Shown: piece after piece, positions 1,628 through 54,710 of the stretch | Layout of the letters: each line of letters begins with the position of its first letter | Numbering within the stretch: the first letter of the stretch is position 1 | NCBI GenBank assembly: GCA_009784275.1 | Contig: WRCA01000001.1 | Location: 129,783-193,782 of the forward strand | Source of the DNA: Alphaproteobacteria bacterium | Lineage (GTDB): Bacteria > Pseudomonadota > Alphaproteobacteria > Rs-D84 | Reading direction: 5' to 3' | DNA: 64,000 nucleotides | The notes under the pieces: generated by a model | Seen by the model: only the letters and a program-made list of their open reading frames with translations | The model's database searches: none | Told to the model about the DNA's origin: nothing | Translations under genes and position numbers: made by a program

Positions 1628-2419
1628 GTGAAGACGAAAATAGTTTATATTTCTGGCGGGGAAACCTTTGATGTAGCGGATGTACGCCGCGCTTTCGATG
1701 AAGTACGCAAGACATTGGCATTAAGCGAAGACACTGTTTTATTCGGTGTTCCGGTAGACAGCGATGGTGTGGAGCAAAAAGCCGACTTGTTTGCTGAATT
1801 GCCTGTCACAGAAAAAGTAGAAGAAGAGATAGTTGAAAAACCAAAAAGAACCCGCAAACCAAAGGCTGAAAAGCCAGAAATAAAAGAAGAGCCAGTATCA
1901 GAGCTTGAACCTGAACGCGTTATTCCTATTTTATCAGTTCTGTCGGGTGGGAAAGCGGAAGAATCGAAACCTGCGCCAGAACCGGTCGAAATCGTTGCTG
2001 CTGAAGAGGTTGAACCAGTCGATGCTTTTGATGAAATTGCTGTTGCTTTGGGCGAAGATTTGCCGATCGATGATGATAAGACGCCAAAGACCATAGAAGA
2101 TATTTTTGAAAACCTGACCCCCCTGCCCGAAGAAAAAATCATAGAAAGCACGCATTCCGCTGACCGTGATGACCGTGCAGATTTGGATGACGATGCGACC
2201 CTTTCAAAGCTGGCGGCCGAATTCGTAGAATCCCAAGGGATAAGCGAACCGGCGCCCACGGCACGTGGCACAAGAATGGGCAAGCTGAAAAACATTTTGC
2301 CATTTAAAAAAGCCAAGAAAGACGATACATCGATGCTGGGGGATTTATTCGGTTGGGCAGGCATCGCCGCGAACGAAGATGAAGCGACAACCCAAAGTTT
2401 TTTCAGGGCCAGCAATTAA
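1628..2419 (+). CDS. hypothetical acidic protein (Glu/Asp/Pro-rich middle, conserved-looking termini)
   Basis: 263 aa ORF with a GTG/TTG-type start context. It is strongly acidic. The antisense Ser-rich ORF 1645-2415 is treated as a shadow. Confidence 0.4.
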   Translation: MKTKIVYISGGETFDVADVRRAFDEVRKTLALSEDTVLFGVPVDSDGVEQKADLFAELPVTEKVEEEIVEKPKRTRKPKAEKPEIKEEPVSELEPERVIPILSVLSGGKAEESKPAPEPVEIVAAEEVEPVDAFDEIAVALGEDLPIDDDKTPKTIEDIFENLTPLPEEKIIESTHSADRDDRADLDDDATLSKLAAEFVESQGISEPAPTARGTRMGKLKNILPFKKAKKDDTSMLGDLFGWAGIAANEDEATTQSFFRASN

Positions 2420-2459: not shown

Positions 2460-3548
2460 ATGTATAATATAGACCAGATTCTTCGCCTGCTTGAAAATTC
2501 TGGATTCCAGAGGGTGACTTCTGATGGGGTATATATTTTTATGGAAGACCCCACTTGTTTTGTCCGCAGCTTGGAAGGTTTTGTTAATATCGCTTGGATC
2601 GCGATCACTGCTTTTGCAGGAATACTGCTGTTCGGATGGGGCATATCTTTAATTCGCGGCGCAAAAAATGATTTAAAAAGCGTTGCTGTGAACATCCGCA
2701 ACCTTTTTCTGATATTCGGAATTCTGGCGCTATCAAGACCCATCGCGAATGCGATTTGGGGCGGCGATGTATTTGCCCTGGGGTGCAATACCATCCAAGT
2801 GCCTGTTGCGAAAGTTAATGAGCTTATCGCTACTTCAAAACTTACTTTGAAAATGCGCAATGAAAATGACCTTTATGAAGACTTCGATATTTATGACACT
2901 GCGGTCAGTGGCGAAACCATGGGTCCCGAAAGCTATACCGGTATTACGGGCGCAGTTGGCATTAATATGCCGGAGATGCCGATAGAATCCACGGGAATAA
3001 TATCATATGGCAATGCGACCGGTGCAACAGGCACCACCCCTCTGCCCAGCGAAATTTCAGGCAGCGCCGGACGCGCGGTCATAAGCGCGAATGGTAAAAG
3101 TGTTACTTATTACGATGCTTATGGAAATGTTCTGGGGACAAAAATCGAAGGTTCGGCATCATGGAGGAATAATAATCCTGGGAATATGACTTGCAGCAGC
3201 GGCAAAGGACTTTATCTGGGCGCCATCGCATGCAACGGAAGGTTTCTTGTATTCGCCAACGAAGAAGCAGGAATGGACGCGCATGTTGCGAGATTAAAAC
3301 AATCTCGATATCAAAATGCTTGGCATAAAGAATGTCCGGACTTGCCCAAAGGCAGCCTGGGGTCTGCAATTTGCGTTTGGGCGCCACCATCGGATAATAA
3401 TTCGACCAGAAGCTATATGAATGCAGTGTCAAGCCGTACAGGAATACCACTGCATACACAAATGTCATCGCTTAACGATTCACAATTGCGAAGCATAGCA
3501 AAAGTGCAAAAAGAAAGAGAAGGCTGGACAGTAGGGAGGACGCAATAA
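2460..3548 (+). CDS. membrane-anchored hypothetical protein (2-3 N-terminal TM helices, C-terminal soluble domain with a WRNNNPGNM motif and conserved Cys)
   Basis: 362 aa ORF. Hydrophobic segments IAWIAITAFAGILLFGWGISLI and LFLIFGILALS. No recognisable catalytic motif. Confidence 0.45.
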   Translation: MYNIDQILRLLENSGFQRVTSDGVYIFMEDPTCFVRSLEGFVNIAWIAITAFAGILLFGWGISLIRGAKNDLKSVAVNIRNLFLIFGILALSRPIANAIWGGDVFALGCNTIQVPVAKVNELIATSKLTLKMRNENDLYEDFDIYDTAVSGETMGPESYTGITGAVGINMPEMPIESTGIISYGNATGATGTTPLPSEISGSAGRAVISANGKSVTYYDAYGNVLGTKIEGSASWRNNNPGNMTCSSGKGLYLGAIACNGRFLVFANEEAGMDAHVARLKQSRYQNAWHKECPDLPKGSLGSAICVWAPPSDNNSTRSYMNAVSSRTGIPLHTQMSSLNDSQLRSIAKVQKEREGWTVGRTQ

Positions 3549-4240
3549 TGTCAGATTTAGAAAATTCAAAAATTATAAGCGGAAGCTCTTTCGACACGGG
3601 TTCAAAAATCCCATGGGTTATGATAATACTGATAGTATTAATTGTCGGGGTGGCGATCGTTATCTTTGGAAGGTTAGGCAAAAAAAGTGAAGTAGTTGGC
3701 ACCGAAAAGCTGGGCGCAAAATATCTGCCGGAATTAAGCGGAAATGTCCCGGCACCAAAAATCGTACAAAAGGCGGAAGAGTTCAACGAAAACTATGAAT
3801 TTAATGACGGATTGGGGAACCCGGATAATATTCAGCGTTTTGAATTAGATGAAGATGGCACGGGTCTGGCCAGCATTGAAACCTTTAATGTTGATATCAA
3901 TGGCGATGGGATAAAAGATAAGATCACAAAAAGCAGATTTGAAAACGGTACTGCTCATTTTCACTATGACTACAAAATAGAATTAAATTTGGATGGACAA
4001 TTTACAGATATCACCCCCGCAGGTTTCAGGACTGTCGAAGGCGCCGATTGTTCGCTACAAAAATTAAGATTCTCCTTTTATCCGGATTTCCAAGTTATAA
4101 AAATTTCTCGCGATTGGGAAGATACTTGGGTTACGCCAACTATGGCGACAAAGACCATCTATAGGTTAAAAGATAACAAATTGGAAATTGCATCGACTTC
4201 AGCACTGAAAAAAATCTGCAACGTTTCGGATTTGTTTTAA
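3548..4240 (+). CDS. membrane-anchored hypothetical protein (single TM then about 170 aa domain), start overlaps the previous stop (TAATG)
   Basis: 230 aa ORF with TM IPWVMIILIVLIVGVAIVIFG. Translationally coupled to 2460-3548. Confidence 0.45.
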   Translation: MSDLENSKIISGSSFDTGSKIPWVMIILIVLIVGVAIVIFGRLGKKSEVVGTEKLGAKYLPELSGNVPAPKIVQKAEEFNENYEFNDGLGNPDNIQRFELDEDGTGLASIETFNVDINGDGIKDKITKSRFENGTAHFHYDYKIELNLDGQFTDITPAGFRTVEGADCSLQKLRFSFYPDFQVIKISRDWEDTWVTPTMATKTIYRLKDNKLEIASTSALKKICNVSDLF

Positions 4241-5718
4241 TCGCATTTCGGGCTTGTTTCACCGGCTTCTTTCAGCTCTGCACAGGCGGCATCGCGAACC
4301 CTCTTTGCGGATTCATATCTCTGCCATTCTACTTCGCCACCAGGACCGGCAAGTATCTGTGACCGCAATAATTCTTCTTCGCCCAGCGCCTTTTGGCCCA
4401 TCACTTTGCCGCCGATTGCCTTGTTACCGAACAGCTCCATAGCCCCAACGCCAACCGCTGCGCCACCAACAGCACCCGCGACAGTTATTCCGGTACGCGC
4501 GCCTTTCTTGGCATCAAGAATTTGCTTTTCTATGTTTTTTTCATTCAGCCATCCGCCGCAAGTCACCGTGCTGCCCACCATAAAGTACCGCGCCGGCATA
4601 TCATAAGTTTTTATACGCGAATCTTCACTGGCGATTCCTATGCGCACCCAGCATGCATTATTATCCGGGTTCTGTATATCTTCGGTCAAGTCCATATAAG
4701 ATATTCCAGTATTGTTTTTGGACGCCCAGACGAAAATATTGCTTCGCGCATCACCGCAGTCTTCTTTTTTATTCGGGCCAGATATTTGAAACTCGTCGCC
4801 CCAGTCCGCAATTTTCTCGCCGGATAAAGTACAATTTAAATCTTCAAAACCTTTTTTGATTTGATGCTTTTTTGTTACAACTGCGCTGACAATTCCGCCA
4901 ACAGCACCAAGGGTCGCACCCGCGATAGAATCGGAAGCCAAGCGCGCGGTGTTGAATTTTCCTTCGGCGTTTTTCCAAGCCGAGGCTTTTTCGCCAGCAT
5001 ACTGGGATTTGATAGAATCCATCAATTGCGATGATGTGTCAATCCTGAACTGCAGACCGGAAAGATCATCATTATCAAATTCCACTTCCTGGGCAACCAC
5101 GCATTCTTCTATATCGACAACTTCTTCCTGCGTTTCCAGATTGATAAGTTGCCCCATATCATTTTCTTCGCATTTAGTTTCTACAGGCTTTGATTTTGCT
5201 GGTTGTTTTGGTTTCGTAAGCTCTGGAGCAATCTTGGATAATTCCGGATATTTGTCATATACTACTTTCAGATATTTATCGCGTTTTTTTGCATCTGTTA
5301 TTCTTTTTGCCCTTACTGCTACAGAATACGGGCTAGTAACCTTCATATATTTTCTTTCTGTGAGAAGGTCAAAGATTTCCATATTATCATTATCCATCGC
5401 TACATATATCGGATATTTGCCTTGAAAATCTACGCCGGAATAGCCTGCATCAGCCAACTTTTTTATCACTCTTATGTCCGGCCAATCACTCACTGCGATA
5501 TACAGTGGGTTAAGCTTGCTATACCCATATTCATCCGCTTTTACTGTATCAATCTTTTCATTCAAACAATTGAAGTCTTTATTTTTGATACAAGTATTCA
5601 GTGCGCTCAACCTGTTATTATCAGCATTTATCGAAGCCATAGTAGTGAAAGAGGACGGGCCTGAATACGCAGGAGACACGCAAGGTAATAGAAAAAGTAA
5701 TAAATAAAATTTCCGCAT
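4237..5718 (-). CDS. secreted protein: signal peptide, ankyrin-like repeats, C-terminal glycine zipper resembling the 17-kDa-antigen/Gly-zipper OMP family
   Basis: Start at the ATG (MRKFYLLLFLLPCVSPAYS signal peptide). LNPLYIAVSD...GKYPIYVAMDNDNMEIFDLL is ankyrin-like. GITVAGAVGGAAVGVGAMELFG is a GxxxG zipper. The G9 tract is immediately 5' of the ATG. Confidence 0.55.
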   Translation of the reverse strand: MRKFYLLLFLLPCVSPAYSGPSSFTTMASINADNNRLSALNTCIKNKDFNCLNEKIDTVKADEYGYSKLNPLYIAVSDWPDIRVIKKLADAGYSGVDFQGKYPIYVAMDNDNMEIFDLLTERKYMKVTSPYSVAVRAKRITDAKKRDKYLKVVYDKYPELSKIAPELTKPKQPAKSKPVETKCEENDMGQLINLETQEEVVDIEECVVAQEVEFDNDDLSGLQFRIDTSSQLMDSIKSQYAGEKASAWKNAEGKFNTARLASDSIAGATLGAVGGIVSAVVTKKHQIKKGFEDLNCTLSGEKIADWGDEFQISGPNKKEDCGDARSNIFVWASKNNTGISYMDLTEDIQNPDNNACWVRIGIASEDSRIKTYDMPARYFMVGSTVTCGGWLNEKNIEKQILDAKKGARTGITVAGAVGGAAVGVGAMELFGNKAIGGKVMGQKALGEEELLRSQILAGPGGEVEWQRYESAKRVRDAACAELKEAGETSPKCD

Positions 5719-5723
5719 CACGA

Positions 5724-5732
5724 CCCCCCCCC
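5724..5732. repeat. homopolymeric C9 tract on the plus strand (G9 on the coding strand), 5 nt upstream of the start codon of the 4237-5718 gene
   Basis: cgaccccccccccgtc read directly. On the minus strand it reads ACGGGGGGGGGTCGTGATG. Confidence 0.9.
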
Positions 5733-5828
5733 GTCTTGACAACTTGAATTATAACATAAAATGAGAAATATAAAAATGGCAAAAATGCCGCAATGCGGCA
5801 GCGTAGATTAGTAATTAATTTGTCGATT

Positions 5829-6695
5829 TTACATATCCAGTAATTTTTTCAGATACTCAACCACATCAAATGGGCGCAGATCGCCTATTTTTTCCCCGCA
5901 TCCGATTACCGCGATTGGCAACGGGGATTTTTCCTTTGCCGCGTAAGAAATCAAAAACCCGCCCTTTGATGTTGAATCCATTTTAGTGATTATTAACCCA
6001 GTTAGTTTTGCAGATTTATCAAAATGCTCTATTTGCGCGGTCGCATTTTGTCCCGTCATTCCATCCAAAACCAGCAGGGTTTCATGGGGCGCATCCGGGA
6101 CGATTTTCTTTATCACGCGTGTAATTTTCGACAGTTCGTCCATCAAATCGCTGCGATTATGCAGGCGTCCCGCAGTGTCCAAGATCACTATGTCCGCATT
6201 ATCTTCGATCCCCTTTTGAACCGCCGCATAAGCCGTTGCCGCCGTGTCATTCGACACTCCGCATACCAGTTCTGCCCCGCCGCGACGCGCCCATTCGCCC
6301 AGTTGCTCCCCTGCTGCCGCACGGAAAGTATCACATGCGCCGACAATAACTTTCTTGCCACTGTCTGTCCACTGCCTGGCCAGCTTCCCAATCGTAGTGG
6401 TTTTTCCCGCGCCGTTAACGCCGATCACCAACAAAACCGCGGGTTTTTCCTGAACAGAAAACAAAGAATCATGAACTGAAAGTTTATTTGCGATCGGTAA
6501 CATTGCGTCAAAGAGAATCTGCTTTGCCTCCGCCGCGTCAACGGTTCCGCGTGCGCGTAATTTTGATACCAATGATTCCGCCAAATCTGGCGCGATATCC
6601 GCAGCAATCAAGGCATCCGACAAAGATTCCGCCGTTGCGACATCCAGCTCTTTCTTGCCCGTAAAAAACGAAGAAATTTTAGAAAATATGCCCAT
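5829..6695 (-). CDS. ftsY: signal recognition particle receptor FtsY (NG domain only, 288 aa)
   Basis: GVNGAGKTTTIGKLA P-loop, DTAGR, and the SRP GTPase motifs. Confidence 0.85.
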   Translation of the reverse strand: MGIFSKISSFFTGKKELDVATAESLSDALIAADIAPDLAESLVSKLRARGTVDAAEAKQILFDAMLPIANKLSVHDSLFSVQEKPAVLLVIGVNGAGKTTTIGKLARQWTDSGKKVIVGACDTFRAAAGEQLGEWARRGGAELVCGVSNDTAATAYAAVQKGIEDNADIVILDTAGRLHNRSDLMDELSKITRVIKKIVPDAPHETLLVLDGMTGQNATAQIEHFDKSAKLTGLIITKMDSTSKGGFLISYAAKEKSPLPIAVIGCGEKIGDLRPFDVVEYLKKLLDM

Positions 6696-29393: not shown

Positions 29394-29424
29394 TAAAAAA
29401 ATCCGCCGATTGGCGGATTTTTTA
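29394..29424. terminator. bidirectional terminator AAAAAAATCCGCCGATTGGCGGATTTTTTA
   Basis: Between convergent pgk and the 717 aa gene. Overlaps the latter's stop codon. Confidence 0.65.
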
Positions 29425-31575
29425 TGGAATACAAGCACCACTGACAGTATCCCAGAATGGCGTTGCACTGGGGCAACAAATCTTTCCACCTACTGTTGCT
29501 GGATTGGTTCCCCCCCATTCATATCCTACGGCACACTCACATTCGCCGGTTTCATAGCTCCATGTAGAGTTTTTCGGACAATTACAGGTTTTCGTAGCCA
29601 TGCTCCATGTAGAACGTATCGGGCAATTACAACCAAATGCTGTCGAAGCTGTTCCTGGGACACTCCATGCATTATATGGAGGTTCAGCGCTGCCTTCTCC
29701 TGCGGTATAACACGCGATATCAACGACAAGCGATTCTTTACCGATTCCTAAAGTAGTGGCACAACTTTTAATCACCGACAAGCACGCGTTATATACAGCA
29801 TTTGAAACATATCCGATATCGGTTCCACTGCTGCCGATTATCGCGCCATTTGTTATCAGACATGACTGGACATCGGACTTACAACCTGCCCTGTATTCCG
29901 CAATAATATTATCTTGCCGCGCTTTTATCTGGGTTAACGCTTGGGTCAGGTATTCTTTAACAACCTGATTTTGCGGGTCATAACGTTTGTTGGCCCCGGT
30001 GCTGTAAGTATAAGCCTGGCATCTGTTCAACACGGACATACACATTCCGTAATCTCTGCCATTTTCATTTCTGCCAATCTTTGATACCAAGAAGCTGACC
30101 ATATTGGCGCTGTTGGAATTAAAGTTAGTTATATTCGAACTGATAAATTCGGAAAGCGAACCAGAGTTACCCCATACGCCCCACATGGAGGTAAAGCCCG
30201 GGGCGGTGAAATCGCTGCCAGGGATAACTTCGCCATTAACAATAAACTTGCCGGTCGGATCCAAGCACAATTCGTAATCATTTCCGCAAACAGAATCATT
30301 CTGCATACATGCATCCAACGCGCTGACGCATCCGCGCATATCATAAGAATTCCGGTTTTGCGCCACGACCAAGCGCGCCTTTTGCAGCACTGCCGTCGCA
30401 TTGCGCACTGTCCGTCTCATTTGGGTATTTGAATCATCCAATGCGCGCTCATACTCTATGCACTGTCTGTCGATTTCCAAGTCATAAGAATTTGTTATCA
30501 AGGCCGTATCCACGCCTTGTTTTTTGCAAGTATCCAAAACAGACGCTTTGCAACGGGTCGATGCTGTTTTAAACAATTCTGCCCCGCGCTGGTTCGATAT
30601 AGTGCTGCTGCCCATTCCGAACAACGAACTCAAATCAAACCCGCTTCCGAAATTCAAATCCAAGCTGGCGAAATCCAAGAACCCGTTTTCAAAACCCGTG
30701 CTGCTGCCGCCTTTTACATCCAGAACCAGTTTTTTAATTTTATCCAAATCATTTTTAAGCTGGCTGGTATCCTGGGTTCTTTGCATTTCCTGTTCTGCTT
30801 CGGTTTGAGTGAACAGAGAATTCACTTCGTCCTTGGTAAGACCCAGGTATTGAATTTTCATGGCGACATCTTGCAAGTCTTCGGTCGCCTGCTTTAACGC
30901 ATCTTCGCTCTTTTTGTAATTAGCAATATTGGCGGAACAACTGCACCGGCCCTGGTTATCATCCAGAACATCGCAGAAATTATCCATACAAGCAAAAAAC
31001 TGCGCTTTGCAGAAATCTTCCAGCTGTGCAATTTCTTCCATGCTTACGCCCGTATCAACCGGCGTAGCAGGAGAACTTCCAAACAGCGGCGTTCCCGCCA
31101 TACGTGTTGCGGAAAGCTGCCCTATGGCACTGCCACGAACGCCGACACGCGCATTATACAAAGGTGCTGTCACAGTATCTGACTGCACAATTCCGGCACG
31201 CGCTGTATTTACATTATTCGTGCCACTAGACCGCGTAGCGAGCGTTTTTTCGGGACCTGTCAAAGACATAGAACGAATACTGGTCGCCGCATTGCGTGAA
31301 GCAACCGCGCGGCTGGTCGCCGCTGCGCGTGGCGCAGTTTGCGCGCCCGCCGCCGGAACAGCACGCGTAGCGGAACGCGCCGTCACCGGGGTACGCGCAT
31401 TAAGCGCGGGTTGCCTTAAAATCGGCGCAGTTGCGGGTGCAGAAACTTCTTCGGGGTTTTCGTCATAGAACGGGCTTTCGACCACATCCGTTTCAGACTC
31501 GTAATAGACCGGTGCAACCTCTGCAAACGCGGGCATGCACAGCAGTCCGAACAATACGGGCAAGATTTTCTTCAT
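29422..31575 (-). CDS. large secreted cysteine-rich protein, paralog A (717 aa): signal peptide, Arg/Ser/Ala/Thr-rich repeats, Cys-rich core, C-terminal CxC repeats
   Basis: MKKILPVLFGLLCMPAFA signal peptide. AQFFACMDNFC...RCSCS block shared with the 822 aa protein. About 40 Cys. Confidence 0.6.
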   Translation of the reverse strand: MKKILPVLFGLLCMPAFAEVAPVYYESETDVVESPFYDENPEEVSAPATAPILRQPALNARTPVTARSATRAVPAAGAQTAPRAAATSRAVASRNAATSIRSMSLTGPEKTLATRSSGTNNVNTARAGIVQSDTVTAPLYNARVGVRGSAIGQLSATRMAGTPLFGSSPATPVDTGVSMEEIAQLEDFCKAQFFACMDNFCDVLDDNQGRCSCSANIANYKKSEDALKQATEDLQDVAMKIQYLGLTKDEVNSLFTQTEAEQEMQRTQDTSQLKNDLDKIKKLVLDVKGGSSTGFENGFLDFASLDLNFGSGFDLSSLFGMGSSTISNQRGAELFKTASTRCKASVLDTCKKQGVDTALITNSYDLEIDRQCIEYERALDDSNTQMRRTVRNATAVLQKARLVVAQNRNSYDMRGCVSALDACMQNDSVCGNDYELCLDPTGKFIVNGEVIPGSDFTAPGFTSMWGVWGNSGSLSEFISSNITNFNSNSANMVSFLVSKIGRNENGRDYGMCMSVLNRCQAYTYSTGANKRYDPQNQVVKEYLTQALTQIKARQDNIIAEYRAGCKSDVQSCLITNGAIIGSSGTDIGYVSNAVYNACLSVIKSCATTLGIGKESLVVDIACYTAGEGSAEPPYNAWSVPGTASTAFGCNCPIRSTWSMATKTCNCPKNSTWSYETGECECAVGYEWGGTNPATVGGKICCPSATPFWDTVSGACIP

Positions 31576-36182: not shown

Positions 36183-37148
36183 TTACAGCTTCTCTGCAAG
36201 TTCCGCGATCGCGATCGCATACCAATTCGAATTATTCCATTTCTTTATGCGATAAAAATTCGGATAAGTCAGATATGCCAAGGCCGGACTGAAGTTAGCT
36301 GCATCACACACCAGGCCTGCTTCCATATTAGCATCCGGCACGCCCGCTATATCCATCGCAGCCCATTCGGCCAGCGATTTTTTAGTTTTTCCATCACATA
36401 AGCTAACATCGAAATTTTCTGGCAACTCAACACGACGAACTATTTTTTCATTCGGATTCCAACCCAGTCTATTCAGATAGTTTCCGGCTGAAAACATAGC
36501 ATCGCTTATATTATTTATAATATCAATTCTGCCATCGCCGTTGCCATCTGCACCGTATTGCTGCAGTGTAGTTGGGATAAACTGAAAGTGTCCCATCGCG
36601 CCCGCCCAGCTGCCCCTGACCCCTTCAATCTGAATCCTATTCTTGCTGGAGATTTTCATCAACGCAATCATCTGGTCAGTAAAGAACTGTTCGCGCCGAC
36701 CTTCATAAATCAGCGTTAAAAAAGAATCCGTTAACTTACTGCTGCCTTTGGTTTCACCATAGTTGCTTTCCAGTCCCCAGAACGCCAAGATAACCTCTGG
36801 CGAAACGCCATATTTCTGATGAACCTTGTTCAGCAACGTCGGGTATTTAGCGCGCATCTTATGCCCATTTGCGATACGCTTTTCATTTACCGTTTTTGCC
36901 AGATACTCCCCCAAAGTCAATTTAAATTCTGACTGATTTTGATCCCGCCATACGATTTTTGGAATAAATGCGGCATCTTGGATCGCGGCATTAATAGTAC
37001 GATCATCAACATTTTCCGCAACTGCACGATCTTGAATTTTATTAAGAATCATATTCCAACGATCGAAATCAAATCTTCCTTCTGCGGCATATGTCGCGCC
37101 AGAATAAAGCACAGAGCATAAATAACAGATAAGAGATAATTTTTTCAT
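36183..37148 (-). CDS. mltB: lytic murein transglycosylase, MltB family
   Basis: Signal peptide, FWGLESNYGE catalytic motif, C-terminal peptidoglycan-binding-like region. Confidence 0.7.
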   Translation of the reverse strand: MKKLSLICYLCSVLYSGATYAAEGRFDFDRWNMILNKIQDRAVAENVDDRTINAAIQDAAFIPKIVWRDQNQSEFKLTLGEYLAKTVNEKRIANGHKMRAKYPTLLNKVHQKYGVSPEVILAFWGLESNYGETKGSSKLTDSFLTLIYEGRREQFFTDQMIALMKISSKNRIQIEGVRGSWAGAMGHFQFIPTTLQQYGADGNGDGRIDIINNISDAMFSAGNYLNRLGWNPNEKIVRRVELPENFDVSLCDGKTKKSLAEWAAMDIAGVPDANMEAGLVCDAANFSPALAYLTYPNFYRIKKWNNSNWYAIAIAELAEKL

Positions 37149-37209
37149 ATTTGCATTATAGCATAAAAAAAACTTCGCGCAACGCACGAAGCTGTCTATG
37201 CCTTATGCC

Positions 37210-38685
37210 TTAAAACGCATATTTAACGCCCAAATGAACACCGAATGACTGCCAATTCGCGTACTTCAATGAATCCGGGATGTTCACCGTATGCGCCTCT
37301 ACCGTTTCCAGCACAGGATAACATCCCGCCTGGACTGTCGGATCACAAGGTAGTCCGCTGACATCATTAAATACATACTGGCCAAATTCATCCATCAAAT
37401 AAGTCGTATATGATGCTACAAACAACTTCCCACCAATATTGCCTACATGGAAAAAGTTCGTATCCACTTTCAACGACAGATTCATTCGGTCTGACAGCTT
37501 GTAATTATACTCCATTTCCGCAAGATATGAATATGCGCCGGTGTTGCCTTCGTCGATAAAGCTGGGATTTTGCTGCCAGTCCGTTCTGTTCGGCCATATG
37601 CCTTCGGATGAATAGTGAGGCATTCCGACCTGAACATAAAAACGCAACTTATCCTTGAAAGTCATTTGTTTTTCGACTTCCAGTCCCAGGAAAAGCCCGC
37701 TCCATGTCGTATTATAAATATGCGTTACCCCAGGGACTATTATCGGTCCATCCCCGCCAATAATCACGCACTCGCCCGGTCCGACACCCCATGGCAAATA
37801 CATCCACAGCGGATCATAATCTGTTGTATTTAACGAACCATCAAGATTAACACTGGGCGATCCATCCGGATTTACCGCCGCAACTTTGATATCTTCTGGC
37901 GACAAACAAACTTGATACCAACCATTTTCAGCATATTCTTTGGCCAGACCTTGTGGCACGCTGATAAAAGCGCCAGCCGCATCACCGAAAACATAGTTTC
38001 CGTCCGGTGTTAACAGAGGAAGGTATACCGCAGGGTTCGGATAATAATGATCCGACATTCTTAAATCATGTTTGAAAATTTCGTACCCGATTGACGGCGA
38101 CAGCTTCCATCCCGCCACATCCCACATATGTTTCGCACCAAAACCAAATTTAATATTATTTGTTTTTCCAGTTTGGTTTCCGACTGAAATTGTGAAAATT
38201 CCTATATCAGGTTCTGACCAATTGTATGGTTCCAAGTCATAGTCGATGGAAAATCCAGCGCTGGCCATTGTACCCATGCGATATTCGCCATAAGCGAACA
38301 GGTCATAATTTCTCATAGTGAAATTACTATCCAAACGAACGCCGATTTCGTTATAGACCATATTGCTCCATTCCAAAACCGAATTCACCCCGGTTTTGAA
38401 AGAAAAATCTGCGTATCTTCGGGCATAATCCGCCGACAACACCCATGGCGGTTTTTCATCGGTTGCAACGCCAGCCGGTGTCATTGTTCCGCCAATACCT
38501 GGCGGTAATTCCTGGCGCGGGACTTGATAAGTATAGCTTCGTTGGGCCACTATTTGAGGTTGACGCTGGGTTCCGACATATGTATTTGGCCCAGCTTGGT
38601 AATAAGTCGGCGTTCCTTCACGCGCAGCAAACACCGCCAAAGGCGCAAAAATCCCAAGTAAAACGGCGAAAAAGCCCATTCTCAT
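37210..38685 (-). CDS. outer membrane beta-barrel protein (porin/MOMP-like), 491 aa
   Basis: Signal peptide MRMGFFAVLLGIFAPLAVFAA, alternating amphipathic strands, C-terminal ...GVHLGVKYAF ending in aromatic Phe. Confidence 0.5.
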   Translation of the reverse strand: MRMGFFAVLLGIFAPLAVFAAREGTPTYYQAGPNTYVGTQRQPQIVAQRSYTYQVPRQELPPGIGGTMTPAGVATDEKPPWVLSADYARRYADFSFKTGVNSVLEWSNMVYNEIGVRLDSNFTMRNYDLFAYGEYRMGTMASAGFSIDYDLEPYNWSEPDIGIFTISVGNQTGKTNNIKFGFGAKHMWDVAGWKLSPSIGYEIFKHDLRMSDHYYPNPAVYLPLLTPDGNYVFGDAAGAFISVPQGLAKEYAENGWYQVCLSPEDIKVAAVNPDGSPSVNLDGSLNTTDYDPLWMYLPWGVGPGECVIIGGDGPIIVPGVTHIYNTTWSGLFLGLEVEKQMTFKDKLRFYVQVGMPHYSSEGIWPNRTDWQQNPSFIDEGNTGAYSYLAEMEYNYKLSDRMNLSLKVDTNFFHVGNIGGKLFVASYTTYLMDEFGQYVFNDVSGLPCDPTVQAGCYPVLETVEAHTVNIPDSLKYANWQSFGVHLGVKYAF

Positions 38686-38796
38686 AATTCCAATTATAGC
38701 ATAAAAGCATCTTTAAAAAAACACTTTTGAAAAAGGTGCTTGCAAATTGCTTGAAATTTAATAAAATGTGCGTCTGAACATAAAAGGACTTTAAAA

Positions 38797-38988: not shown

Positions 38989-40062
38989 ATGTCAAACGCA
39001 AAAAAAATTATCGCTATCGATGCAATGGGGGGGGATAAAGCCCCGCGCTCTGTCTTGGGCGGTATGAATCAATTTTTATTTCAATATGGCGGAGATAATG
39101 TTCTATTCCGTGTTTTCGGGGACGAGCCGCGAATTCGCCGCTTGCTTCGGAAATATCCCCGCGTAGCCCGCCATTCGGAAATCATTCACGCGCCAGGTAA
39201 AATAAAATCTACCGACAAGGTTGTCGAAGTTATTCGTCATTCCGGCGACACATCCATGTATATGGCAATAAAAGATGTTCGCGAAGGCAATTCCTGCGCG
39301 GTTGTTTCTGCCGGAAATACGGGCGTTCTTATGGCTTTGTCAAAACTGGCGCTGAAAACTGTCGAGGGGATTTCCAGGCCTGCGATCACAACCATGCTGC
39401 CCAGCGGCGGTGGCGATCAACGTGTTGTAATCCTCGACCTGGGTGCGAATGTTATATGCGACGAGGAGAACTTATTCGATTTTGCTCTGATGGGAAGCGT
39501 GTATGCCGAAAAAATCGGAAAGATGCCACGCCCAAAAGTTGGCATTCTAAACATCGGGGAAGAAGACACCAAAGGCGACGAAGTTTTACAACGGCTGAAC
39601 AAAGTGTTATCCGAGCATAAGGAAGAATTGCCTTATGAATACATCGGTTTTGTAGAGGGCACAGATATCAGCGGTGGAAATGTTCAGGTTGTGGTAACAG
39701 ACGGATTTACCGGCAATATTGTTTTAAAGACTGTCGAAGGTACGGCAAAGCTGATAAAACGAGTGTTAATGGACACCTTTAAAAAATCTTGGGTTGCGGT
39801 GGCGGTTTCATTCCTATTGATTCATGTCTTCAAACGGCTTAAAAACAAGCTGGATCCACGTGCTTATGCTGGCGCAATATTTTTGGGACTAAATGGGTTT
39901 TCGGTAAAGACTCATGGCAACAGCGATGCCTTGGCTTTTTCGAACGCGATAAAATACGCGTCAGACCTGGCGGATGCCAGCTTTAACGACCAGATAAAAG
40001 CCAGTGCGGAAAAGTTGAAAAATGTGAAGGGTTTATTAAGGGAGAAGACGGATGGGGAATAG
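38989..40062 (+). CDS. plsX: phosphate acyltransferase PlsX
   Basis: IAIDAMGGDKAP and GNTG motifs. Position after rpmF. Confidence 0.85.
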   Translation: MSNAKKIIAIDAMGGDKAPRSVLGGMNQFLFQYGGDNVLFRVFGDEPRIRRLLRKYPRVARHSEIIHAPGKIKSTDKVVEVIRHSGDTSMYMAIKDVREGNSCAVVSAGNTGVLMALSKLALKTVEGISRPAITTMLPSGGGDQRVVILDLGANVICDEENLFDFALMGSVYAEKIGKMPRPKVGILNIGEEDTKGDEVLQRLNKVLSEHKEELPYEYIGFVEGTDISGGNVQVVVTDGFTGNIVLKTVEGTAKLIKRVLMDTFKKSWVAVAVSFLLIHVFKRLKNKLDPRAYAGAIFLGLNGFSVKTHGNSDALAFSNAIKYASDLADASFNDQIKASAEKLKNVKGLLREKTDGE

Positions 40063-54114: not shown

Positions 54115-54152
54115 TGTAATTTTCCCAAACTTTATGCTATAATGTTCTCGCT

Positions 54153-54710
54153 ATGCAAAACATAACCATTATCATGGGCGGGCCGGGAAGTGGCAAGGGG
54201 ACCATTGCCCGAATGCTGACGCAGCAACATAAATTCAAATATATAGAAACCGGCGCCTTATTCCGCAGTTTATCCGACAATTCCGAAATTATGAAAATTA
54301 TGAGGACTGGCGAGCTGATTCCAGACAATCTCATTTTTCCCCTTATCAAAAGCAAAATAAAGGGAATGCGCGACATTCTTCTGGATGGATTTCCGCGTGA
54401 TTTGAAGCAGTCGAAATGGCTGCTTGCGAACTTTCATGTGCATATCGAAGTCGTTTTCTTAAACATTCCTCAATCTGTGATGATAGAAAGGGTTCATAAT
54501 CGTTTATCCGAAGGTTCTGATCGCGTGGATGACGCGAAAGACCAAATCATTCGCCGCAGGATCGAGACTTTTGAAAAACTTACTATGCCGGCGGTCGAGT
54601 TTTTGCGCGATGCGCCCGGGATAGAATTTTTCGAAATAGACGGCACCCATACGCCCGAAGAAATCTTTGAAAAGATAACCCATCATTTACTTCTGTTTAA
54701 ACAATCCTAA
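54153..54710 (+). CDS. adk: adenylate kinase (short form)
   Basis: GGPGSGKGT P-loop and LLDGFPR NMP-binding motif. 185 aa. Confidence 0.65.
   Translation: MQNITIIMGGPGSGKGTIARMLTQQHKFKYIETGALFRSLSDNSEIMKIMRTGELIPDNLIFPLIKSKIKGMRDILLDGFPRDLKQSKWLLANFHVHIEVVFLNIPQSVMIERVHNRLSEGSDRVDDAKDQIIRRRIETFEKLTMPAVEFLRDAPGIEFFEIDGTHTPEEIFEKITHHLLLFKQS

Follow-up and report, generated by a model that had tools for sequence, protein, structure and literature searches.

A homopolymeric run of exactly nine G's (G9; positions 5724..5732 of the minus strand, C9 on the plus strand) was found directly upstream of a gene for a secreted ankyrin-repeat/glycine-zipper protein in a 64-kb stretch of contig WRCA01000001.1 (64,000 nt; this whole stretch is called the window, and all positions given are window coordinates). 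The run is most likely an ordinary ribosome-binding site (RBS) of unusual composition and is not expected to be a switch. We lean towards the more specific view that it is a strong G-run Shine-Dalgarno (SD) element, located in a predicted 5′ leader of ~22 nt, which has been lengthened in this lineage and which is mutable in principle and functionally buffered.

Sequence of the G9 locus

The minus strand at the locus reads ...TGTTATAATTCAAGTTGTCAAGAC-GGGGGGGGG-TCGTG-ATGCGGAAA, and the interval from the promoter to the start codon reads TGTTATAAT-TCAAGTTGTCAAGAC-GGGGGGGGG-TCGTG-ATGCGGAAA; i.e. a -10 box is followed by a 15-nt gap, G9, a 5-nt spacer and the ATG. The initial annotation had described a G9 run ending 5 nt before an ATG and an in-frame TTG upstream of it, and both were confirmed on the minus strand. 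The ATG (5716..5718) is the start codon of a protein of 493 amino acids (aa); it is conserved as ATGCGGAAATTT (MRKF) in the orthologue described below, and the ENA record calls the same start. The spacer TCGTG (5719..5723) is fixed and contains an in-frame GTG (5721-5719). The in-frame TTG (5742-5740) extends the open reading frame (ORF) to 501 aa when the run is nine G's long.

G9 is the sole G/C run of at least 9 nt in the window, where ~0.13 such runs are expected from base composition. Dinucleotide shuffles (n=100) contained a mean of 0.17 G/C runs of at least 9 nt, and at least one such run was present in 14 of the 100. The occurrence of a G9 somewhere in the window is therefore not significant by itself, and the notable aspect of the run is its placement at the RBS, not its existence.

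The G run as a probable Shine-Dalgarno element

The run is positioned as an SD element, ending 5 nt before an ATG whose MRKF N-terminus is kept by the orthologue. Complementarity was examined by modelling the duplex with GAUCACCUCCUUU, a canonical 16S tail being assumed, and yielded -15.3 kcal/mol; the same pairing model gave -11.8 kcal/mol for a consensus GGAGG control and -2.9 kcal/mol for the leader of the orthologue. SD elements were likewise found at this site in relatives, i.e. AGAGAAAG in the orthologue and AGAGGGA, GGGGGAA or GGAGGG before the ATG in family loci. Other genes of the window carry AAAGGAG or AGGAAGG 5-9 nt before the ATG. Like a canonical SD element, G9 is G-rich, complementary to the CCUCC core and ends 5 nt before the start codon; unlike one, it is a pure homopolymer of nine and longer than the rRNA tail can use.

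A second G-run RBS was present on the plus strand of the window, where TGGTATAAT (1596-1604) is followed by 12 nt, GGGGGG (1617-1622), CTGTT and a GTG start at 1628. The gene preceded by this G6 run encodes an acidic 263-aa protein (1628-2419, plus strand), for which the ENA record gives the same GTG start. The G6 and G9 runs share the 5-nt spacing to the start codon. An ORF on the minus strand (1645-2364), which a simple longest-ORF pass had picked at the G6 site, was rejected as lying on the wrong strand.

According to the initial annotation, changes in run length would alter the spacing between the SD element and the start codon. This was not supported, since the spacer TCGTG holds the 3′ edge of the run at 5 nt from the AUG, so that slippage alters only the 5′ extent of the run, and the modelled pairing was barely dependent on length from G7 to G14. 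The modelled energies of the anti-SD duplex were -7.7 kcal/mol for G4, -14.0 kcal/mol for G7, -14.8 kcal/mol for G8, -15.3 kcal/mol for G9, -15.5 kcal/mol for G10 and -15.6 kcal/mol for G11-G14. At every length from G7 up, the 3′ end of the duplex kept the same register relative to the AUG in the pairing model. With more G's present than the rRNA tail is able to pair, the gain or loss of 1-2 nt should be buffered. Folding of the leader RNA gave a minimum free energy of -24.5 kcal/mol, which was no better than that of shuffled sequences (z = -0.57; orthologue z = -0.03), and the computed accessibility of the SD element and the AUG was hardly altered from G4 to G14. Structure-based switching was set aside on account of this shuffled-like folding and the stable computed accessibility.

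In the mechanism proposed here, transcription would proceed from the extended -10 box TGTTATAAT with a start ~7-8 nt downstream of the box, giving a leader of ~22 nt of which the G run would be the sole notable feature. The 16S tail (CCUCC core and flanking U's) would pair with the run through G-C and G-U pairs, the 3′ flank UC would anchor the pairing register, and the core pairing would be located ~7 nt from the AUG. The run may represent a lineage-specific lengthening of the G-rich or purine-rich SD element of the relatives, brought about by A-to-G changes and/or slippage. The number of G's may well change at an elevated rate, with steps of 1-2 nt predicted to be near-neutral for translation; the outcome would be a strong constitutive RBS rather than an on/off switch.

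Promoter and predicted transcription start

The extended -10 box TGTTATAAT of the ankyrin gene is located at 5748..5756 of the minus strand and is conserved in the orthologue as TTATGTTATAAT. The extended -10 motif TGNTATAAT occurred nine times in the window versus 2.96 occurrences expected. Perfect extended -10 boxes of the sequence TGCTATAAT were found 6, 7 and 9 nt before the ATG of three genes of the window, namely at 37155-37163 (minus strand) before the gene of an SLT_2 lytic transglycosylase (36183-37148), at 38693-38701 (minus strand) before that of a Pom-like outer-membrane protein (37210-38685) and at 54135-54143 (plus strand) before the adenylate kinase gene (54153-54710). Because TGCTATAAT lies only 6-9 nt before the ATG, the SLT_2, Pom-like and adenylate kinase transcripts are probably leaderless, and transcription in this organism therefore probably begins ~7-8 nt past the box. 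Judged from the geometry of its -10 box, transcription of the ankyrin gene probably starts at ~5740-5742, which would give the leader of ~22 nt. The in-frame TTG (5740..5742, minus strand) coincides with this predicted start, 6-8 nt past the -10 box, and was rejected as a start codon.

A role of G9 as a promoter spacer was also considered and rejected; TTGTCA at 5742-5737 is a possible -35 element, but no -10-like hexamer follows 16-19 nt on. The arrangement of Treponema-type promoter poly-G tracts was not found either, the run starting 15 nt downstream of the -10 box TGTTATAAT. Upstream of the ankyrin gene lies ftsY, identified via TIGR00064 (E 1.4e-86), which ends at 5829. A terminator scan showed an intrinsic terminator of ftsY (TGCCGCATTGCGGCA followed by TTTTT) at 5786..5800 of the minus strand, which separates ftsY from the ankyrin gene.

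The orthologue and the wider family

Among 5.8 billion proteins, the sole close relative besides identical copies was an orthologue of 78% identity, which is present in ENA ERZ27257304 and in the JGI metagenome 3300010167. The orthologue keeps TTATGTTATAAT, TTGTCAA and ATGCGGAAATTT, and AGAGAAAGCCATT stands where the window has GACGGGGGGGGGTCGTG. The purine run AGAGAAAG of the orthologue aligns to G9 and takes its place. A pattern scan of metagenomes with TTATGTTATAATNNNNNTTGTCAA returned 65 stretches, of which only the known orthologue contig (L060, the same as L002) was relevant, the rest being unrelated promoters.

The family defined by the C-terminal domain of the protein comprised more than 577 matches from Alphaproteobacteria of gut, rumen and termite, including Ca. 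Enterousia. Many of its members are ~280 aa long and consist of a signal peptide and the C-terminal Cys-rich domain. A genome scan with the family alignment yielded 80 loci (L069-L148) from Ca. Enterousia and related metagenome-assembled genomes (MAGs), none of them of the same species. TGNTANAAT was found within 60 nt of the ATG in 64 of the 80 family loci, at a median distance of 27.5 nt versus 29 nt here. Each of these 64 loci had a G-rich SD element, and the longest G run in the last 20 nt was 1-6, most often 3. No G run of at least 7 nt was present before the start codon in the 64 scored loci out of 80, the maximum being G6. In 619 kb of related loci 19 G/C runs of at least 7 nt were detected, none of them at the start of a family gene. 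The only other G9 in these 619 kb (L099, 2519-2527; an Alphaproteobacteria MAG) was rejected as a parallel case, as it follows, at a distance of 2 nt, the stop codon of a gene whose product is a secreted Cys-rich protein of 782 aa.

An extended -10 box of the form TGTGATATAAT, TGTGGTATAAT or similar was observed upstream of 64 of the 80 family genes. On account of these genes, the lineage appears to depend on promoters with TGn-extended -10 boxes and on very short leaders.

Tract length across assemblies

G9 was identical in three assemblies, i.e. the window, contig k141_2131074 of ENA ERZ27257304 and the Logan contig of SRR10512951 (L151). Contig k141_2131074 is not itself the source of the window, which in this orientation would extend past its end, yet it equals the window over the entire 11.7-kb overlap. 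L151, found through the neighbouring FtsY protein, equals window positions 6726-4966, i.e. its entire overlap of 1.76 kb. No contig of the three breaks at the G run. These lengths are those of consensus sequences, in which minority variants are hidden, and some of the assemblies may share reads.

That G9 is a consensus error of sequencing or assembly, and the tract in fact shorter or longer, is very unlikely. Homopolymers are error-prone in short reads and assemblies, as in the case of pmpG (PMC4488443), and reads may have been shared between the assemblies. However, three pipelines, with one separately accessioned run (SRR10512951) among their sources, all gave exactly G9 with perfect flanks of 1.8-11.7 kb, and the run is embedded in unique sequence midway in long contigs.

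Contigs of another sample set, from ENA ERZ27257295 plus JGI and from Logan SRR5215144 (L152, L153), were identical to the window across ftsY; L152 and L153 both stop exactly at 5772, 16 nt upstream of the -10 box of the ankyrin gene. Close similarity to the orthologue locus begins ~10 nt beyond 5772, and the orthologue locus has a different upstream neighbour. The break at 5772 reflects either the branching of a strain variant or, if the assemblies share reads, an end of coverage.

Comparison with known variable G tracts

In Neisseria, the G/C tract of pilC acts inside the 5′ coding region, in the signal-peptide region, and that of fetA acts between -35 and -10 (PMC5320596). As in both cases, the homopolymer described here consists of G/C and is found at the 5′ end of a gene whose product is secreted or surface-located, but it lies neither in the coding sequence nor between -35 and -10. 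In Treponema pallidum, the tract of tp0126 is located between -35 and -10 and those of tprE/G/J/L just upstream of the transcription start, and the poly-G of tprL varies from 7 to 11 within isolates (PMC7864442). As in the window, the tracts of tpr, tp0126 and tprL are poly-G runs of ~9 beside genes of predicted surface proteins whose signal peptides had been hidden by misannotated starts. The treponemal tracts, however, act on transcription and lie upstream of its start or between -35 and -10, whereas G9 lies downstream of the -10 box and of the predicted start.

Two other known tracts are, like G9, found in leaders. The G-repeat in the leader of Helicobacter pylori tlpB (6-16 G) is targeted by the small RNA RepG, and its length results in graded rather than on/off control (PMC8295292). 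The tlpB-hp0102 locus shares with the ankyrin gene a G run of similar length in the 5′ leader of an envelope- or surface-related gene. It differs in that the tlpB repeat is upstream of and separate from the RBS, acts via the C/U-rich loop of a small RNA and varies in length among and within strains, whereas here the run is the RBS and all three consensus assemblies have G9. In Mycobacterium tuberculosis, a +1 insertion in the poly-G of the espR leader alters leader folding and translation efficiency (PMC11898584). Both espR and the ankyrin gene have a G homopolymer in the leader, but the espR leader is long and structured, and the tract at its 5′ end refolds hairpins that mask the RBS, whereas the leader here would be ~22 nt.

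Alternative explanations

The run might instead be a contingency locus or rheostat, in which a slipped-strand change of length would lead to graded or on/off expression of the ankyrin protein through SD strength, through leader folding or through a C/U-rich small RNA as in the RepG-tlpB pair; we consider this unlikely. G runs of at least 8 nt are hypermutable in many bacteria, and G9 has the repeat length of contingency loci (G/C runs of ~7-8 or more). The leader that contains the run belongs to the gene of an ankyrin protein with a signal peptide, the run exceeds the length needed by an SD element and is unmatched among the homologous loci scored, and variable G tracts are known from T. pallidum tprL, H. 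pylori tlpB and M. tuberculosis espR. On the other hand, G9 was present in all three assemblies and the orthologue lacks the run; modelled pairing and spacing did not respond to changes of 1-2 nt, folding was unremarkable (z = -0.57) and accessibility was stable from G4 to G14. A position between the -10 box and the conserved ATG is, as modelled, not sensitive to length. Within the 64-kb window, repeats were not enriched in genes for surface or host-interaction proteins, the other runs being located in plsX and close to the 3′ end of a coding sequence (CDS). It is more doubtful still that the SD element itself is a hypermutable G tract which sets translation of the secreted ankyrin-repeat protein, as a translational rheostat embedded in the SD element. 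Such a rheostat, were this improbable arrangement realized, would act directly by tract length or via a C/U-rich RNA partner. No documented homopolymer that is itself the SD element and acts as a switch was found in the literature searched, and an Rfam scan of the window returned six tRNAs only, a small RNA partner having been sought no further than the list of intergenic C/G runs.

A frameshift switch, which the initial annotation had offered for the case that the upstream TTG is used, is the least credible of the alternatives. Translation would start from the TTG at 5742-5740, the run would be coding (MSRRGGVV...), and a change of 1 nt would lead out of frame. The TTG is in frame with G9 and the ORF is open (501 aa), and a poly-G near the 5′ end of a CDS is the commonest known form of such switches (PMC5320596). 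Against this, the TTG begins 5 nt past the -10 box, no later than the point at which transcription is expected to start; an in-frame stop just upstream of it sits inside the -10 box, and no SD element precedes it. The orthologue has the TTG out of frame, yet ATG-MRKF is conserved, and the ATG with its own strong SD element stays usable even when out of frame. No collection record calls a 501-aa or 494-aa product. Scarcely more probable is an effect at the level of transcription, by which the length of the run, at ~+9 to +17, would tune promoter escape or slippage of RNA polymerase. This position follows from the predicted start site, and poly-G near the start site modulates tpr transcription in T. 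pallidum (PMC7864442), but the treponemal runs are located upstream of the start or between -35 and -10, and here the run is downstream of the -10 box and of the predicted start. The reading of G9 as a lengthened and buffered SD element has to be held against several points itself. Nine G's exceed what an SD element needs, and no run of at least 7 nt occurred in the 64 scored family loci. Contingency loci typically carry genes like this one, whose secreted product has a fold of the host-interaction type. A canonical 16S tail had to be assumed for the pairing, as the window contains no rRNA gene, and the model does not consider how leader length, RNA partners or over-strong SD elements might act. 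Consensus assemblies, moreover, cannot reveal minority length variants.

The ankyrin/glycine-zipper protein and its neighbours

The whole CDS of the ankyrin gene, including the stop codon, occupies 4237..5718 of the minus strand (493 codons). The initial annotation had labelled its product a secreted ankyrin-like/glycine-zipper protein, and this label holds, as a signal peptide, an ankyrin-repeat fold and two glycine-zipper segments were found. The signal peptide is encoded at 5662..5718 (MRKFYLLLFLLPCVSPAYS; predicted cleavage after AYS), its n, h and c regions being read from the sequence. The N-terminus, MRKFYLLLFLLPCVSPAYS followed by G, shows the three regions of a Sec signal peptide and a hydrophobic peak, and the predicted local distance difference test (pLDDT) score is below 50 in residues 1-25. 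An AlphaFold2 model from a 24-sequence alignment showed a confident helical-repeat domain at residues ~30-165, corresponding to the ankyrin-repeat domain (5224..5631, minus strand), and fold searches of the PDB were dominated by the ankyrin domain. Two hydrophobic GxxxGxxxG segments are located at residues 267-275 and 415-423. The conserved C-terminal Cys-rich domain with its almost invariant glycine-zipper helix (GAVGGAAVGVGAMELFGN) spans residues ~290-493 (4240..4851, minus strand); within it the C-terminal ~170 residues include the invariant C321, W331, C356, C387 and G415-G431. No match to the C-terminal domain was found in Pfam or NCBIfam.

At 100% identity, the protein corresponds to MCL2748576.1 (FWE50_00690), encoded in the MAG of an uncultured alphaproteobacterium. 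The organism is uncultured, originates from termite gut and is known solely from MAGs. The NCBI record MCL2748576.1 starts at Met27 (467 aa), and for the orthologue JGI has placed the start at an internal TTG (465 aa); the signal peptide is lost in both. The ENA calls, 493 aa for the window gene (4237-5718) and 501 aa for the orthologue (L002, 795-2300), begin at the conserved MRKF. An exact-protein look-up gave no record for the products of the TTG start (501 aa), the GTG start (494 aa) or the NCBI start (467 aa).

The ankyrin gene is convergent with a conserved gene pair at 2460-4240 (plus strand), which encodes proteins of 362 aa and 230 aa and overlaps in ATGA. A hydrophobic segment is present at the N-terminus of the 230-aa protein, which also gave a weak CarG-like match. 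Its gene adjoins the ankyrin gene in the orthologue strain too (L002, 2297-4082), where the flank on the other side differs. An inversion of the ankyrin block between strains, considered because of 68-aa ORFs on opposite sides, was rejected since the two proteins are dissimilar and flanking inverted repeats are absent.

Other G/C runs in the window

Besides G9, the window has only two G/C runs of at least 7 nt, both of them coding: plsX contains a G8, and another CDS contains a G7 close to its 3′ end. The G8 of plsX (39027-39034, plus strand) encodes the conserved DAMGGD motif (ATGGGGGGGGAT) and is thus a slippage-prone tract in an essential gene, which makes it a useful internal control for heterogeneity at the level of reads. 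The G7 (29510-29516; C7 on the plus strand) is located ~30 codons from the end of a 717-aa protein (29422-31575, minus strand), which has a signal peptide, is Cys-rich and has no Pfam match; a frameshift at G7 would replace its C-terminal tail only. Because these runs sit in coding sequence, including that of the essential plsX, long G runs appear to be tolerated here without a switch role. Nothing in these runs points to a genome in which surface genes are controlled by repeats.

Significance of the G9 run

As things stand, the finding is of little import, being an RBS of unusual composition in a single MAG. Its practical value lies mostly in annotation, as the public gene calls of NCBI and JGI cut off the signal peptide. 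If the tract were variable and translation sensitive to its length, it would add a route through translation initiation to the transcriptional and frameshift routes of repeat-mediated phase variation, and it would single out the ankyrin/glycine-zipper protein as one that faces a host or partner in this little-known lineage of the gut.

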